From sequence record LN881738.1: a stretch of 41,318 bases of DNA. The stretch is one strand, 5' to 3'. Below are positions 28,472 to 33,860 of this stretch, one piece after another; positions within the stretch are counted from its first letter, which is position 1; the number at the start of each line of letters is the position of its first letter. Below the pieces are notes generated by a model, which saw nothing but the letters and a program-made list of their open reading frames with translations, was not told the origin of the DNA and did no database searches. The translations under genes were made by a program, and so were the position numbers. This stretch comes from Clostridium phage slur17.

Positions 28472-30637
28472 CTACATAAAACCTTTTAATAACAATAGTT
28501 TTTCATCTTCATCTAAAGAGTTCAACATCCTGTCTTTTGTATATTTTATAGCATTTTCTAAACTCTTATCTTTTTCGTCTAATTCTAAATCTTTTTTTAT
28601 GTCATCTACAGTTATATATCTTTTTATATTATTAAGTTGTATTCGTTTTTTTTCAAACTGGCATGATATAGGATTTATATTTTTATAAAAAAACATAGTT
28701 TCTATATCATGCCAGTTACTATATTTTTTCTTTTCTATAATAAAAATTCCATTCAGTGTAACGCTTAGCTTTTTAGTTGTTAAATCCCAGTTTTCCCCTA
28801 AAATTGTTCTTAAGTCGTTACTTAACTCTTGTAAATGCAATTCTTTATAAGATGTTCCAATTCCAAACAATTTATCTATATAATTAAATACTGTAACTTG
28901 AATAAGTTCATCATTTAAAAACTCTGGATATTCCTCTTTTAATTCTCTATATATTAAAGTATTTATTTTATTAAATATTACCCCACGTCTTTTGTTTGCT
29001 GTATTCGCTAGTTTCCAAGCAAGGTCTAAGTCGAACTTATTATCTAGTACATAATTAGAATATAGTTCTAACATGCTATTACTTTTACTTTTCTTTACCA
29101 AATTATGTATGTCATACGCTCTGTAAGCCTCTAAGCACCCTTTTGAACTTAGTTTCATATCATTATGATACTGCATTAGTGAAAAGCTCTTAGAATCGCT
29201 TTTAATCTGTCTATAACCTACTAGAATTTCTTTATGTTCTTTTAAAATTTCTCTTGTTGCATCTTTAATTTCTTTTACAACTTTCTTGTACTCTTTTAAC
29301 TCTTTTTCATTTGTGCCAACTTCTTTAGCATCAGTTATATTAACATTTTCAAAATATTCTTCTAATAACACTTTAAAACTTTGAATTGTTCTTGTATTGT
29401 AATAGTTGCTGTAAACTTGACTTTTTATATATAATTTATCTACTTTATAGCAATTATCTTTTGTACAGTAGTACACATTTGAGTCTATGCGAATTGGCGT
29501 TGCATTTATTCCAACTGTTTCAAACTGTAACATGTGTTTAGATACTTTGTTATAAGCATCTTTTAAGATAGTTGCTTTTTCTATATTTTTGTTAACTAGC
29601 CATTCAATTTTGTATACATTGCACTCTTCTTCATATTTATTGAATATGTGTACATTTACTTTTTTTAAGTTTCTAAACCTTGCAACATACTGTTTTATAG
29701 CTCCAACATCTTTTATATTAACAATAATTATATCTGTGATATCTTTGTTGTTTATATTTACACCAGCTAGGATTGTTGTTGTATTTAAAAGCGTTTCATA
29801 GTCTTTCATGTCTGAATTTTTAACTATTCTATTGTACAATTCATTCTCTTCTTTTCCATCTGCATATACAACTCCAACTTTTTTGTTCACTGAATCTCTT
29901 ATAAATTCTAATGTTGATATATCATTCATCAACATGGCGCTGTTTTTAGATTTATTTATTATGTTAATCATTTCAGTAAAATTTTTATTGTCAAAGTCGT
30001 TGTACAATTTAACTTTATATTCTGTTTTTTGCTTTTGAGTGTACTCTATTATGTAGTCATATATTTCAAATTCAAGTTTTGTTGGTGTTGCTGTAATGTC
30101 TATTCTTCCTTTGCACTTAGACATTATATTATTTAGATTTTTTATTGCTTTTCCTCGATATGCATCTGTATAAGTTTGATGTATTTCATCAACTACAATT
30201 ATGTATTCACTTAAGTCTGTGTTTATAAGTTTTTCAGTTTTATCCCAAGTCATTACAACTAAGTTACCATTTTTAAATGCTTCGCTAACAGGTATTTTGT
30301 CATATGCTCCTGGTATATCATACTCGTGCATTGCCTGCTCCACATTTGAAGCATTTGGAAGTATGAATAACGCTTTTGTTTTTAATTTTTTTAATGTATT
30401 TATAAAGCTATAACTTTTTCCTGCTCCTGTCGGTGCAATAAACAGGGTTTTCCCGCCATTTATCGCGTTGGCTATAGCCGTTTTAATTCCTAGTTTTTTT
30501 TCGTTTATATATTTTTTTATTTCATATGTTTCATGTCTATTGAAATTTGAATAATTTTCTTTTTCATGCTCTGCTCTTTCAGCGCTACATTCTTCTAAAA
30601 ACATCTTATCTATATTATTTTTATTAACATTCTTCAT
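28472..30637 (-). CDS. Superfamily-2 DExH helicase (721 aa) with an uncharacterised ~370-aa C-terminal region
   Basis: Motif I APTGAGKS, Ia FILPNASNVEQ, II VVDEIHQ, III TATP, V TTILAGVNI, VI QYVARFRN. ATG at 30637 follows GGAGGG; the track start at 30658 is probably too long. Confidence 0.85.
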   Translation of the reverse strand: MKNVNKNNIDKMFLEECSAERAEHEKENYSNFNRHETYEIKKYINEKKLGIKTAIANAINGGKTLFIAPTGAGKSYSFINTLKKLKTKALFILPNASNVEQAMHEYDIPGAYDKIPVSEAFKNGNLVVMTWDKTEKLINTDLSEYIIVVDEIHQTYTDAYRGKAIKNLNNIMSKCKGRIDITATPTKLEFEIYDYIIEYTQKQKTEYKVKLYNDFDNKNFTEMINIINKSKNSAMLMNDISTLEFIRDSVNKKVGVVYADGKEENELYNRIVKNSDMKDYETLLNTTTILAGVNINNKDITDIIIVNIKDVGAIKQYVARFRNLKKVNVHIFNKYEEECNVYKIEWLVNKNIEKATILKDAYNKVSKHMLQFETVGINATPIRIDSNVYYCTKDNCYKVDKLYIKSQVYSNYYNTRTIQSFKVLLEEYFENVNITDAKEVGTNEKELKEYKKVVKEIKDATREILKEHKEILVGYRQIKSDSKSFSLMQYHNDMKLSSKGCLEAYRAYDIHNLVKKSKSNSMLELYSNYVLDNKFDLDLAWKLANTANKRRGVIFNKINTLIYRELKEEYPEFLNDELIQVTVFNYIDKLFGIGTSYKELHLQELSNDLRTILGENWDLTTKKLSVTLNGIFIIEKKKYSNWHDIETMFFYKNINPISCQFEKKRIQLNNIKRYITVDDIKKDLELDEKDKSLENAIKYTKDRMLNSLDEDEKLLLLKGFM

Positions 30638-30776
30638 CTTTATCCCTCCAATTTCCACCTGGAGGCTGACGCTCTTTTTTTGATTTTTTGTAATAATTTT
30701 ACTATTAAAATTACCTTAAAACCATTGTGTTTTTCTACACTTTGTCTTATAATATAAATATAAGTATAGAAAAACA

Positions 30777-30866
30777 AGGATATATTATCCTTAAGAGAGG
30801 TCTAACCTCCGGTGTAAGGAACATGGTTTGTTTGACGGCAAGTACATGTTCCTTGTTTATTTTTTT
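30777..30866 (+). ncRNA. Candidate ~90-nt structured RNA, antisense to the predicted helicase leader
   Basis: TTGTCT-17-TATAGA at 30742-30770. Hairpin aaggata/tatcctt at 30776-30792. Terminator aaggaacatg (30816-30825) pairs with catgttcctt (30845-30854), followed by GTTTATTTTTTT. Confidence 0.4.
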
Positions 30867-31006
30867 GTAGATTTTTTTAAACCAATTAAAAAAAAGTTTT
30901 CTGTTCGTTGTGATTATAATTATAGCACATTTAAATTATAAAAAAATATACTCTTTTTGAAAATAAATTATATTTTAAAAATATATTTTCTAAAATACTG
31001 CATTTT

Positions 31007-31040
31007 AAAAGACTTAGTATATAAACTAAGTCTTTTTTTA
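31007..31040 (+). terminator. 12-bp hairpin plus T-run
   Basis: aaaagacttagt pairs with actaagtctttt around the loop atataa, followed by TTTTA. Confidence 0.45.
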
Positions 31041-31156
31041 TGTAAATATATGTTATAATAATTTTAGCAAGAGAAAGCAATCTATATTCTAAAAAAAGAG
31101 TGGAGTCTATACACAAAAGATTATCCTCCCAACGCTACAAAGGGAGGTGATGAAGT

Positions 31157-31309
31157 ATGGATAATTTTTTACTTAATGTATTAGCTGGTGTTATAGCTAG
31201 TTTAATATTCTATATAATTAGCAAATTATTTAGACAAGTAAAAAACCACTCTGCGCAAAAGAGTGGTTGGGAATTTGATTTGAGAATCAAATTCAAAAAG
31301 TTTAAATAA
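31157..31309 (+). CDS. Type I toxin-like membrane peptide (50 aa)
   Basis: Below the track threshold. SD AAGGGAGGTG. Translation MDNFLLNVLAGVIASLIFYIISKLFRQVKNHSAQKSGWEFDLRIKFKKFK has a hydrophobic N-terminus and a Lys-rich tail. CCTCCC (31125-31130) can sequester the SD GGGAGG (31142-31147). Confidence 0.7.
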   Translation: MDNFLLNVLAGVIASLIFYIISKLFRQVKNHSAQKSGWEFDLRIKFKKFK

Positions 31310-31361
31310 TTTTTTATTTTAGACTAAAACTCTACTCTTATGACTAGAATACAGTTCTCTT
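31240..31361 (-). ncRNA. Candidate antitoxin sRNA, antisense to the toxin 3' end
   Basis: Minus-strand promoter TTGTAT-18-TGaTATAAT (reverse complement of 31368-31397). Terminator aaccactct/agagtggtt (31244-31268) plus a T-run on the minus strand. Confidence 0.55.
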
Positions 31362-31461
31362 GCTTTTATTATATCACATTTTCTTTAAAAGATACAACTT
31401 TACATCATTTTCAGTATTCTATTTTTTTTATTTTTATCAAAGTTTATTTTAAGAACGATAA

Positions 31462-31567
31462 AATTAAAAAACCACTCAAACGCCAATAAGAGTGGTTTAA
31501 GAAAATAAGTTATTTTTCAAAACATTGGAAATAGCTACTCTTGTGTAAAGTAAATCATTATTTCCTT
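31462..31567 (-). ncRNA. Second copy of the sRNA unit (same promoter and terminator architecture, no cognate toxin ORF seen)
   Basis: TTGTAT-19-TGaTATAAT (reverse complement of 31574-31604). Terminator aaaccactc/gagtggttt (31469-31498) plus a T-run. Confidence 0.45.
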
Positions 31568-31761
31568 GCTTTTATTATATCACATTTTTTAAAAAAAGAT
31601 ACAATTTTACATCATTTCTAATATACTAAAATCTTTACTTTTTACCAAAATTTGTTTAAAAAATAGGAGAAAACTATTGTTTTTGACGACCCGTCATGGT
31701 ATAATATATTTATAGAGAAGGAGGTGAGAAAGCAAAAAAATAAAAGAAAGGAGGAACGGGA

Positions 31762-31890
31762 ATGGGGAGATTAGAAAGAAGTAAAAAGAAAAGAGAAAAC
31801 AAATTTAACATAGTTAAAAAAGTTTTCTCCTTCATCCTATTATTACTTAACATAATCCTCGCAGTTCTAAGAATTTTGAAAGAACTGTAA
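31762..31890 (+). CDS. Small membrane peptide (42 aa)
   Basis: SD AAAGGAGG. Translation MGRLERSKKKRENKFNIVKKVFSFILLLLNIILAVLRILKEL. Upstream extended -10 TGgTATAAT at 31696-31704. An ~11-bp hairpin at 31898-31925 follows directly. Confidence 0.5.
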   Translation: MGRLERSKKKRENKFNIVKKVFSFILLLLNIILAVLRILKEL

Positions 31891-31964
31891 GGATAAGCCT
31901 AGAGGGAATAGCCCTTCTCTCTAGGTGACTTCTTTCTAATATTATAACACATTTCTAAAAAAAC

Positions 31965-32126
31965 ATGAGTGATAAATTTTATAAGATTTGCATTGTTTTA
32001 GTTTTGATAACTATAGTCTTAAATATAGTATCTATAGTATTAAACTCTAGTACAAGCAACATGCTCGGTTTAGTTTTTAGTGTTGTATTATTGCTTTTCT
32101 TTGTAATACAGCAAAAAAGGAGCTAA
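31965..32126 (+). CDS. Possible two-TM small protein (53 aa)
   Basis: MSDKFYKICIVLVLITIVLNIVSIVLNSSTSNMLGLVFSVVLLLFFVIQQKRS. There is no clear SD. It ends 3 nt before the AbrB-like gene. Confidence 0.35.
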   Translation: MSDKFYKICIVLVLITIVLNIVSIVLNSSTSNMLGLVFSVVLLLFFVIQQKRS

Positions 32127-32129
32127 TGA

Positions 32130-32312
32130 ATGGAAAAAGAAAAAAGAGATTTAAAGTTTAACTTTCACAAAGGTGGGAGTGGGTCGTTTACTCCTAGAAT
32201 GAGTGTTCCTAAAAAATGGGCTGATGAAATGGGCATAACAAGAGAAAACCCTAATGTTACGGCAACATTCGAGGGCGACAGGATAATAATTGAAAAGGCT
32301 AAGAATGAATGA
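32130..32312 (+). CDS. AbrB/MazE/SpoVT-type DNA-binding protein
   Basis: SFTPRMSVPKKWADEMGITRENPNVTATFEGDRIIIEK is a typical swapped-hairpin AbrB-like domain. Preceded by an AAGGAG SD. Confidence 0.75.
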   Translation: MEKEKRDLKFNFHKGGSGSFTPRMSVPKKWADEMGITRENPNVTATFEGDRIIIEKAKNE

Positions 32313-32322
32313 CTTTTTCTAT

Positions 32323-32360
32323 AAAAGAAGGTTGCTTTTTTTCTTAGCCTTCTTTTTTTT
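32323..32360 (+). terminator. Terminator after the AbrB-like gene
   Basis: agaagg (32326-32331) pairs with ccttct (32348-32353), followed by a T8 run. Confidence 0.5.
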
Positions 32361-32369
32361 AAATTTTAC

Positions 32370-32585
32370 TATAATATAAAAATATTACTGTAATATTATA
32401 AAAATATTATTTTAGTATTGTATATACAATATTTTAGTATTTTTAATATAATATATTGGTATTGTAAAAGCAATATGTAAATATTGTATTTATATTATTT
32501 GAATATTGTAATTAACAATATTAATATATTGTTGCAATATTATAAAAACAATACTACAATATTATTATAATATTATAAATATAAT
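32370..32585. repeat. Centromere-like cluster of ATATTG/CAATAT palindromes upstream of parA
   Basis: Examples: aatattacTgtaatatt, agtattgtataTacaatatt, aatattgtaattaacaatatt, atattgttgcaatat. Confidence 0.55.
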
Positions 32586-32600
32586 AATGAGGTGGAGAAA

Positions 32601-33410
32601 ATGGCTAATACAAAGCTACTTACGTACTTTAACATAAAAGGAGGTATCTATAAGACAACAACGTCTATAATGACAGCGTATGAACTTGCGAAAGATAAAG
32701 ATAAAAAAATACTCTTATGGGACTTAGATGTGCAAGCAAATCTAACACAATATGTTTATGAAATAAATCATAATGATAATACTACATTAGATATTTTAAA
32801 AGGGATTAGTGCTAATGATGCAATAGTCAAGTCACCTAATGAAAATTACATTAATGTAGACTTAATTCCTTCTGACATACAAATGGCTAGATTTGAACAA
32901 GAGCTATCACCTTTACCAGCCAGAGAAAAATTTTTAGCTCGCTGGTACATGCAAAACTTTAATACTTTGAGTGAGTATGATTATATTATCTGTGATTTAT
33001 CTCCACGCTACGATTTGACAGCTAAAAATGTGCTTTTCTTAGCAGATAGTATAATTATTCCAATTCAAGATAAAAACATTTCTTCTTTAAGAGGAGCAGA
33101 ATTATTTAAACAACTCTGGGATGTTGATAGAACCTATTTTGATAAGGAGGATAATATAAAAAGTACTATTTTAGTTGGATTTGAGAAGAAGAAAACTCAA
33201 ATTAGCGATACTTTCGATTCTTATCTGGAAGGGTTTAACGATATGAGAGATATTATGTTAGATACATACATTAGAAAAAATGAGTTTATAGAGAAGGCAC
33301 TATTAAAAAAACTATCTCTAACAGATTATACAAAAATAACTAAAGAGCATTTCAGCAGACAGGAATTTACTAATATGTTAGAAGAATTGAAAAGAAAAGG
33401 AGTGTTATAG
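32601..33410 (+). CDS. parA: ParA-family partition ATPase (deviant Walker A)
   Basis: KGGIYKTT Walker A, LLWDLDVQANLT, and the CDLSP motif. ATG at 32601 follows GAGGTGG. Confidence 0.85.
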   Translation: MANTKLLTYFNIKGGIYKTTTSIMTAYELAKDKDKKILLWDLDVQANLTQYVYEINHNDNTTLDILKGISANDAIVKSPNENYINVDLIPSDIQMARFEQELSPLPAREKFLARWYMQNFNTLSEYDYIICDLSPRYDLTAKNVLFLADSIIIPIQDKNISSLRGAELFKQLWDVDRTYFDKEDNIKSTILVGFEKKKTQISDTFDSYLEGFNDMRDIMLDTYIRKNEFIEKALLKKLSLTDYTKITKEHFSRQEFTNMLEELKRKGVL

Positions 33411-33743
33411 ATGCCAAGTTTCAACAGAGACCTTTTAGTTGATAAAGAAAAACCGATTTTGAAAAATGGAACAATCGTACAAAATGATTCTACAACTACA
33501 GACAATAAGACATTAAACATATATAATCTAGTTAATAAGAAAAGTAAAAAAGTGACTATGAGTGCAACGCTTGATGAGGAGCTTGTAAACAAATTAAAAT
33601 CTTTTTCTATTGATATGAACAGCGACGTTAGTAAATTATTAAGTGATATACTAACTCAAATTTTATCTGATGTCACTATAAAAGAAGAGAATTTAAATAT
33701 ATACAATGAGAGAAATAGAAGAAATAAGACTAAGAAAAAGTAA
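33411..33743 (+). CDS. Partition adaptor, probable ribbon-helix-helix centromere-binding protein (ParG/ParR-like role)
   Basis: TAGATG junction with parA. KKVTMSATLDEELVNKLKSFSIDMNSDVSKLLSDIL fits a beta-alpha-alpha RHH pattern. Confidence 0.6.
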   Translation: MPSFNRDLLVDKEKPILKNGTIVQNDSTTTDNKTLNIYNLVNKKSKKVTMSATLDEELVNKLKSFSIDMNSDVSKLLSDILTQILSDVTIKEENLNIYNERNRRNKTKKK

Positions 33744-33744
33744 A

Positions 33745-33860
33745 TAATATTATATTTATATTGTTTAGATATTACTTAAATATTGTATATATAATATTTA
33801 AGTAATATTTTAATATTATTATTACAATATATTAATATTGTTTAAATAATATGTTTTAAC
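33745..33860. repeat. Second centromere-like palindrome cluster downstream of the par genes
   Basis: 40-bp palindrome atattacttaaatattgtatatataatatttaagtaatat at about 33770-33809, plus acaatatattaatattgt. Confidence 0.5.

Follow-up and report, generated by a model that had tools for sequence, protein, structure and literature searches.

An orphan type I antitoxin unit beside the resident toxin-antitoxin module of a phiCD38-2-type Clostridioides difficile phage-plasmid

We analyzed the toxin-antitoxin (TA) locus of Clostridium phage slur17 (sequence record LN881738.1; the whole stretch of 41,318 nucleotides (nt) is referred to as the window), in which a type I module is followed by a second antitoxin-like unit that faces only the remnant of a toxin gene. 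Over positions 30900-31760, the sequence matches Clostridium phage CDSH1, Clostridioides phage AR1075-1 and plasmid pCd23_2 of Clostridioides difficile Cd23 (41,319 bp) at 100% identity and phiCD38-2 at 99.8%. Because of these identities, we assign the window to the phiCD38-2-type (Leicestervirus) phage-plasmids of C. difficile. Type I TA modules stabilise C. difficile prophages and plasmids and serve as counter-selection tools (PMC7699646). For comparison we used 43 relative loci from phage, plasmid, IMG/VR and genome collections. Throughout, module A is the one with the long toxin resident in the window (unit 1), module B is the one with the short toxin (represented in the window by unit 2), and antiA and antiB are their antisense RNAs. 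For coordinates see Table 1.

The toxin of module A corresponds to gp33 of phiCD38-2, which has been named a type I toxin homologue and lies together with parA in a 1.9-kb segment thought to be derived from a plasmid of strain 630 (PMC7699646, Peltier et al. 2020). It scores above the curated cut-off of 60 bits of the equivalog model for this toxin family. The segment with its promoter shows 97-100% conservation across all relatives, also in those that have the other toxin class. AntiA is fully complementary to the toxin A mRNA, folds with -30.6 kcal/mol (z = -4.1) and reaches a covariance model score of 74.9 bits; its terminator (31244-31268) was called as a minus-strand intrinsic terminator by our scan. 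In the published pair CD0956.2/RCd10 a toxin mRNA of 298 nt stops exactly where the antitoxin of 134 nt starts (PMC5961336, Maikova et al. 2018), and by analogy we infer the same geometry for the toxin A mRNA (~300 nt) and antiA (~124 nt). For a plus-strand terminator of the toxin A mRNA, only weakly folding 3' hairpins were found (z ~0), and its 3' end is therefore placed by analogy with CD0956.2 only.

According to the predicted fold, two helices close the toxin A mRNA, one between its 5' end AGCAAGAGAA and its 3' end UUCUCUUGCU and the other between a box in the 5' untranslated region (UTR), AGAGUGGAG, and CUCUACUCU close to the 3' end; a hairpin sequesters the ribosome-binding site. Both closure helices change jointly in module B (AGCAAGGAAA/UUUCCUUGCU and GAGUGGCUAUUUCC/GGAAAUAGCUACUC), and this covariation between the A and B modules supports the predicted fold. 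Since the 5' end of the mRNA pairs with its 3' end, the 5' part of the antitoxin resembles the 5' end of its own toxin mRNA. The 5' ends of toxin mRNA and antitoxin would compete for the same 3' segment of the mRNA. On the minus strand, antisense to the hairpin with the toxin ribosome-binding site, the covariance model gave a weak match at 31115-31207 (31.4 bits, E ~0.006). The reverse complement of this hairpin (CCTCCCTTTGTAGCGTTGGGAGG) resembles the B-type terminator hairpin (CCACTCTTATTGGCGTTTGAGTGG).

Unit 2 follows on the same strand as antiA. A preliminary description of this DNA had reported a duplicated promoter block and a duplicated terminator stem, and both duplications were recovered. 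Two copies of the 24-nt sequence CTTGCTTTTATTATATCACATTTT, and no more, are present in the window (31359-31382 and 31565-31588), where no match with up to three mismatches is expected (100 shuffles); the similarity extends to ~31410 and ~31617 (repeat families D1 and D2, spacing 206-207). The terminator motif AACCACTC-N-GAGTGGTT is found only at 31244-31268 and 31470-31497 in the window, again with none expected. It was also correct that the bodies of the two units share only short blocks, with little in common beyond AAGAGTAG. An alignment of the units on the minus strand resulted in 81% identity over the aligned columns, with near-identical promoter regions and terminator arms and with a gap in unit 2 at the 26-nt middle hairpin of unit 1. 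Each of the two predicted RNAs folds into a 5' hairpin and, ahead of the U run, a terminator hairpin.

As read from its sequence, the antiB gene is complete, from the promoter with its extended -10 element through the 5' hairpin to the Rho-independent terminator. By sequence, its promoter fits the sigma-A-type promoter, with conserved sequence upstream of the start, of the RCd8-RCd15 class. The promoters of antiA and antiB appear to be of the extended -10 type (TGaTATAAT), assigned from the -10 element and from homology, not from mapped starts. The antiB terminator folds as a G+C-rich stem of 9 bp with a 12-nt loop, followed by the U run; the terminator scan missed it because this loop exceeds the loop limit of the scan. 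With ~106 nt, antiB is shorter than the published RCd8-RCd15 class (125-140 nt), since it lacks the middle hairpin, like every short-toxin module sampled. Its covariance model score of 128 bits is high by construction, since antiB was among the training sequences. The model, which was built from these RNAs, yielded no significant third antitoxin unit in the window. A scan of 30000-33000 against Rfam (release 15) at E <= 10 gave no relevant match, the best one over unit 2 being Yfr10 with 21.9 bits (gathering score 43), and the antitoxin RNA family appears to be absent from Rfam 15. Further promoter-like sites lie upstream of the antitoxin promoter blocks on the minus strand, TTGGTA-17-TATATT (31648-31620) and TTGATA-16-AATACT (31413-31440). 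They could give rise to longer antitoxin transcripts, as reported for RCd8 and RCd11.

Table 1. Features of the TA locus in the window.
Feature	Position	Strand	Remarks
Toxin A promoter	31051-31059	+	Extended -10 TGtTATAAT, read from sequence; inferred start ~31066
Toxin A mRNA, ~300 nt, ends inferred	31066-31366	+	Predicted fold -93.1 kcal/mol, z = -8.9; AAGAGTGG box at 31096-31103
Toxin A open reading frame (ORF), 50 amino acids (aa), phiCD38-2 gp33	31157-31309	+	NCBIfam NF047374 CD_typeI_toxin, 94.3 bits
antiA, cognate antitoxin RNA, ~124 nt	31238-31361	-	5' hairpin, middle hairpin, terminator 31268-31244, U run
antiA promoter	31368-31397	-	-10 TATAAT (31373-31368), TG at -15/-14; weak -35-like TTGTAT (31397-31392)
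Junction segment between units	31406-31456		74% identical to 31612-31662; repeat family D1
Toxin B dead stub	31457-31508	+	Last 16 codons D K I / K N H S N A N K S G L R K stop; frameshifted
antiB, orphan antitoxin RNA, ~106 nt if transcribed	31462-31567	-	5' hairpin 31565-31527, linker, terminator hairpin 31498-31469, U run
antiB promoter	31574-31604	-	-10 TATAAT (31579-31574), TG at -15/-14; -35-like TTGTAT (31604-31599); 19-nt spacer
Segment past second promoter block	31612-31680		Homologous to 31406-31456; leads into gp32 promoter

Unit 2 was described previously as overlapping no recognisable toxin ORF, with sequence upstream of it that looked like a frameshifted remnant. Indeed, no ORF with a start codon crosses unit 2 in the toxin frame. 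One frame, ...KNDKIKKPLKRQ, holds the residues DKI of toxin B and the adjacent frame holds KNHSNANKSGLRK (31467-31508, stop codon 31506-31508), the two being separated by an extra T at 31464/31465 (+1 frameshift). The 35-aa toxin of phiCD146 ends with exactly this peptide, KNHSNANKSGLRK. Homology to the phiCD146 toxin B gene starts at 31457; the sequence upstream of this point matches instead the segment after the second promoter block. The stub has no start codon, no ribosome-binding site and no promoter, so that no toxin B can be made from the window. A comparison of the stub peptide with the NF047374 toxin model gave no match because the peptide is too short, and the evidence for the remnant is therefore taken at the DNA level.

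The intact counterpart of the stub is found in sister elements. Toxin B of phiCD146 is a protein of 35 aa, MVINFLLSILAGVISAFIYDKIKNHSNANKSGLRK, with a strong ribosome-binding site and its own promoter. It matches NF047374 with 48.1 bits (E = 1e-12), which is under the 60-bit cut-off as expected for a short variant; short variants of 34-35 aa are potent toxins experimentally (PMC7699646). Between the inferred start (~31567) and the last base of its U run, antiB does not differ at any position (100% identity) from the cognate antitoxins of phiCD146 and locus L030 (IMG/VR). The RNA sequence that faces only a frameshifted stub of 16 codons in the window is antisense to an intact toxin in these two elements. 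In pZ1322HCD0038-2 (L008), where an intact toxin B has just one antitoxin, the promoter of this antitoxin is identical to that of antiB, spacer included.

The sampled loci fall into several arrangements. A live toxin A with antiA followed by an orphan antiB is found in the window and eight loci, including phiCD38-2, phiCD111 and Hain-Saunders-2022a. The mirror form, a live toxin B with antiB followed by an orphan antiA, is present in eight loci, including phiCD146, AR1074-1 and pCd18_3, and three more combine a live toxin B with a diverged A-type orphan. The orphan-A stub of phiCD146 still matches positions 19-51 of the toxin model (35.2 bits, E = 1e-8). Single A modules occur in phiMMP04 and others, single B modules in phiCD506 and others, and pB12_1 has one chimeric toxin with the N-terminus of B and the C-terminus of A. 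No phage-plasmid with two live toxins was observed among the sampled loci. On the C. difficile chromosome OX246690.1, however, an intact short-toxin module is followed by an intact long-toxin module and then by a repeat array, and phiCD630-1 has the published layout CD0956.3/RCd14, CD0956.2/RCd10, CRISPR 3/4 (PMC5961336, PMC7699646). With tandem modules as a natural state, a decayed second module is the straightforward reading of unit 2. This is what the preliminary description had considered, a decayed TA module with a retained antitoxin, and it is well supported by the intact toxin opposite the same RNA in phiCD146 and L030, by the chromosomal tandem and by the frameshifted stub. An intact second toxin, which the preliminary description had proposed to look for in related phages, does exist in relatives, but it occupies the first position of the locus, with the toxin class of the window as the orphan.

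Complete orphans are present in every sampled 41-kb member of Leicestervirus, in both mirror forms and in isolates from several countries. In the most diverged relative, Hain-Saunders-2022a, the orphan retains the two-hairpin fold, and its terminator stem is kept by a change on both arms (CCACTC/GAGTGG to CTACTC/GAGTAG). A search of viral contigs for a cognate toxin with this variant hairpin (CTACTC...GAGTAG) gave no match. Within the RNA family 4 of 22 pairs change on both sides, in sequences that are too alike for strong statistics. In the window and the 43 loci taken together, the covariance model found 64 antitoxin-like units. For 28 of them (13 of 31 distinct sequences) there is no intact toxin with a ribosome-binding site in front of it; these figures are descriptive only, as the way in which the loci were collected biases the sample. 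Toxin-less units cut off just upstream of the hairpin recur in unrelated contexts, namely near tRNA-Asn, after an endolysin-like gene and in prophages with 5'-truncated toxins; this recurrence speaks for a function.

In order to judge which toxin mRNA antiB would act on, we compared predicted duplex energies. Those of long A+T-rich RNAs are inflated by loosely paired helices, and only contrasts are used here. The cognate pair antiA:toxin A reached -200 kcal/mol and antiB with the toxin B mRNA of phiCD146 reached -164 kcal/mol, the latter duplex being perfect across 104 nt. For antiB with the toxin A mRNA we obtained -53 kcal/mol, compared with -35 +/- 4 kcal/mol for mononucleotide shuffles and genomic segments, none of which (0 of 200) reached this value. 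AntiB is only partly complementary to the toxin A mRNA, and it is the shared hairpin arms and the AAGAGUAG box that raise this value above background. When the whole window was scanned for antiB targets, the toxin A hairpin was marginally the best non-self site (-43 versus -40.5 for the next), and beyond this hairpin and its own locus no other target stood out.

The antitoxin terminator and the toxin mRNA have the same hairpin, and its loops in the two RNAs are exact complements of each other. Both hairpin loops differ between classes A and B, and the two classes are therefore expected to be orthogonal. Previous experiments showed that antitoxins of this family act in trans and tolerate at least 3 mismatches, and that the divergent antitoxin RCd10 gave no protection against CD0977.1 (PMC7699646). 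The expected orthogonality fits these data, in which an antitoxin with 3 mismatches cross-protects and a divergent one does not. According to the models, antiB probably acts on the resident toxin A in no important way.

We consider it rather likely that unit 2 represents what is left of the 3' part of a second type I module, one of the short-toxin class, and that antiB is still made and would neutralise B-class toxin mRNAs in trans. The ~106-nt minus-strand RNA is probably still transcribed, because its promoter is identical to promoters that must work elsewhere. B-class toxin mRNAs could be supplied by co-resident or incoming phage-plasmids of the phiCD146 and AR1074-1 types, by Sherbrookevirus-type plasmids or by prophages. 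Recognition would proceed via the complementary hairpin loops (UUAUUGGCGUUU in the RNA, AAACGCCAAUAA in the mRNA) and lead to the full duplex. The outcome would be immunity to the post-segregational killing exerted by a competitor. Trans-protection of this kind against the B-class toxins of competing elements is plausible, and its prerequisites are present, namely the perfect complementarity to the toxin B mRNA and competitors that encode toxin B and whose ParA region is 98.5% identical to that of the window. Since this region beside the TA locus is that similar in the window and phiCD146 despite the swapped TA cassette, elements of the two types probably compete for one cellular niche.

A more far-reaching version, which we put forward tentatively and regard as doubtful, is that the sister phage-plasmids, which have the same partition module, each keep one live toxin together with an expressed orphan antitoxin of the other lineage as a selected RNA immunity (anti-addiction). 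Under such selection, the orphans may allow an element to displace a rival or to coexist with it without suffering its post-segregational killing. The toxin-less units by tRNA-Asn, after the endolysin gene and in prophages with 5'-truncated toxins may then serve the same purpose.

Several points weigh against an active antiB. Decay of a module must remove the toxin before the antitoxin, so that an orphan antitoxin is an expected intermediate even without function. The generic promoter scan called neither antitoxin promoter, that of antiB included, because the -35 element is weak (TTGTAT, 3/6) and the spacer measures 18-19 nt. Neither RNA-seq nor start-site mapping of the locus was found in the papers searched. 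The orphan of phiCDHM11 has no promoter, the second unit is disrupted in phiCD6356 and absent in phiMMP04, the terminator of the orphan antiB is one G short in L035, L036 and L038, and the U run is interrupted in orphan antiA copies. When the window is compared with Hain-Saunders-2022a, the orphan RNA (76-86%) is no better conserved than the presumably neutral junction (79%). The locus is also recombinogenic, as seen from the chimeric toxin of L009 and from hairpin gene conversion in phiCDHM11, and the identity of antiB to its cognate copies could reflect recent recombination, not selection. The decayed versions, the lack of extra conservation and the frequent rearrangement would all suit a silent or inconsequential relic, recombination debris of a tandem TA locus on its way to loss, which would either be untranscribed or give an RNA with neither target nor fitness effect, and the share of toxin-less units (28 of 64) is what one-way decay with the toxin going first predicts. 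We nevertheless rate such a relic as the less probable outcome, a possibility to which we give limited weight. Promoter, both hairpins and U run show no damage and match functional cognate copies exactly, complete orphans occur in both mirror forms in all sampled 41-kb Leicestervirus elements, and the diverged relative has a compensatory change in the terminator stem. If the RNA is made, the published trans activity moreover implies neutralisation of a matching toxin mRNA (PMC7699646).

Three other explanations were weighed against that of a module remnant with an active antiB. The preliminary description had suggested a trans-acting small RNA, since the segment CCACTCTT of unit 2 is complementary to AAGAGTGG in the toxin 5' UTR. 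The complementarity is real, the octamer AAGAGTGG is confined to the TA locus (three occurrences in the window, at 31096, 31259 and 31488; 1.06 expected), and the duplex of antiB with the toxin A mRNA beats the controls, with the toxin A hairpin as the best non-self site. A role of antiB as a second trans regulator of the toxin A mRNA, via this pair and the shared hairpin arms, is thus formally possible, but we consider it very unlikely. The cross-duplex amounts to about a quarter of the cognate one and is marginal over the next background site, the recognition loops differ between A and B, the 5' UTR box is better explained in the model by the covarying intramolecular closure helix with CUCUACUCU, RCd10 did not protect against CD0977.1 (PMC7699646), and toxin A already has a perfect cognate antitoxin. 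Unit 2 also has the orientation of antiA and directly precedes the antiA promoter, and family antitoxins are known to have alternative upstream starts and long transcripts (PMC5961336, PMC7699646); it might accordingly be a tandem promoter or leader from which terminator read-through yields a long antiA, like the long forms of RCd8 and RCd11. This we hold to be highly improbable, as read-through of a 9-bp G+C-rich stem with a U run should be minor, the long RCd11 transcript is dispensable for neutralisation (PMC7699646) and relatives with a single unit do without unit 2. The last explanation, a generic promoter-terminator pair for unrelated genes, had been named as the finding that would speak against an antitoxin unit and is practically excluded. 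Nothing was found in its favour, in every relative examined the blocks belong to TA modules or their remnants, and the minus strand between promoter and terminator holds only short chance ORFs.

The modules at this locus are related to known systems. Unit 1 is of the kind of the long-variant modules CD0956.2/RCd10 and phiCD38-2 gp33 (PMC5961336, PMC7699646), with a 50-aa toxin and an antitoxin of ~124 nt compared with 134 nt. Unit 2 shares the promoter block, the terminator arms and the AAGAGUAG box with these long-variant modules but is without the middle hairpin, which corresponds to the C-terminal extension WEFDLKIKFKK of the long toxins; its loops differ as well, so that a different specificity is expected. 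Module B is similar to CD0956.3/RCd14 and its duplicate CD2907.2/RCd15 from prophages of C. difficile 630 (PMC7699646); in both, a hydrophobic toxin of 34-35 aa with a short basic tail is opposed by a convergent antisense RNA that has a promoter and a Rho-independent terminator of its own. We equate the two on the basis of layout and toxin length, not of the RCd14 sequence. In the OX246690.1 locus, which has the CD0956.3/RCd14 layout, the toxin differs from toxin B of phiCD146 at 2 of 35 residues, and the antitoxin shares the terminator hairpin of antiB, with a 5' hairpin that is nearly identical and a linker that differs. In contrast to CD0956.3/RCd14, the B-class toxin of the window is a dead stub of 16 codons. 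Neutralisation of the toxin upon co-expression, instability and Hfq binding have been published for other members of the RCd8-RCd15 class (PMC7699646, PMC8237595). The toxin gp33 and the RNA family are thus known, and new is an unannotated family member in the orphan state. Orphan, truncated or remnant antitoxin units and phiCD146 are unmentioned in the papers searched, and as far as we found the reciprocal orphan arrangement between sister elements is unreported.

Post-segregational killing excludes competing plasmids, and chromosomal type II antitoxins can neutralise plasmid toxins, as in the case of the Erwinia ccd system acting against the ccd system of F. This anti-addiction concept has been summarised in PMC12548467. 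A toxin-less antitoxin that cancels the post-segregational killing of a competitor is also the consequence proposed here. In contrast to the anti-addiction modules, the antitoxin would be an RNA (type I), it is located on a phage-plasmid and not on the chromosome, and the arrangement is reciprocal between sister elements.

In par (Fst/RNA II) of the Enterococcus plasmid pAD1 and in other type I systems of Firmicutes, convergent transcripts overlap at their 3' ends and share a terminator hairpin. The ribosome-binding site in par is sequestered and the toxin mRNA has a 5'-3' structure. The C. difficile modules have all of these layout features in common with par, but there is no sequence homology and the terminator hairpin of the C. 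difficile family lies inside the toxin coding sequence.

If antiB is active, the stability and incompatibility of phage-plasmids of the phiCD38-2, phiCD146 and phiMMP04 types will have to be reread, as one element could disarm the addiction module of another, and the orphan could partly disarm related toxins of resident prophages. Should this be true, the locus would be a clear RNA-antitoxin case of anti-addiction, which has so far been documented mainly for protein antitoxins. Were unit 2 no more than a relic, the locus would still document module recombination and decay in compact form. Toxin-based surveys such as the tBLASTn approach of PMC7699646 are blind to orphan units.

Other sampled loci provided further observations on such units. 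Toxin-less units with the exact 24-nt B hairpin and different bodies are found in L015 (6668-6899), L031 (7948-8179) and L025 (2240-2551), two of them ~60 nt from a tRNA-Asn gene. One toxin-less unit follows an endolysin-like gene and adjoins two 38-nt direct repeats; these are not established as CRISPR, since the L025 repeats amount to just two copies, 73 nt apart. Tandem Repeats Finder detected no array in L025. A third toxin class (METVVFNICLNIATSLIACYIYDKAKNHSNANKSGFKR; L020 and L028 for comparison) uses the same B hairpin. In four prophage contigs (L014, L016, L024 and L026) the 5' end and the start codon of this third-class toxin are deleted and the antitoxin unit is complete, which makes them independent orphans.

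Signs of recombination were observed at several places. In pB12_1 (L009 1153-1290, NZ_CP132142.1) the N-terminus and hairpin of B are fused to the C-terminal extension of A in a chimeric toxin of 45 aa (...NANKSGWEFDLKIKFKKFK). The antitoxin is correspondingly chimeric, and the cassette can recombine within the hairpin. In phiCDHM11 (L041 1365-1630) the hairpin of the live toxin B' has the loop variant AAACGCGACTAA, which is also present in the promoter-less A-type remnant downstream; this suggests gene conversion between the neighbouring hairpins. At the position of unit 2, phiCD6356 and phiMMP04 (L004 1540-1830 and L007 2230-2520) have a different insert with two copies of the hairpin-like sequence AAAACTTTGCAGGACCTGCAA(C/T)ATT. 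The window itself is a mosaic. Its ParA region (32130-33750) is 98.5% identical to phiCD146 and phiCD111 and 96.7% identical to phiCD38-2, whereas the adjacent TA region is 99.8% identical to phiCD38-2 and only ~72% identical to phiCD146, which places a recombination breakpoint between the two regions.

The locus is followed by a number of small genes. gp32 (phiCD38-2 name; 31762-31890) encodes 42 aa with a basic N-terminus and a hydrophobic C-terminus and has a strong promoter-like site, a ribosome-binding site and a terminator (31897-31926). Just past this terminator, the minus strand carries AAATGTGTTATAAT (reverse complement of ~31941-31954), an extended -10 element like those of the antitoxin promoters that is aimed into gp32. 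Judging by this arrangement, gp32 and the facing element may form another pair of a small toxin and an antisense RNA. The next ORF (31965-32126, 53 aa) apparently encodes two hydrophobic segments. It is followed by an AbrB/MazE-like ORF of 60 aa (32130-32312), annotated as PemI in pB12_1, whose match to Pfam MazE_antitoxin (E = 0.0056) is below the cut-off, and then by parA at 32592-33410.

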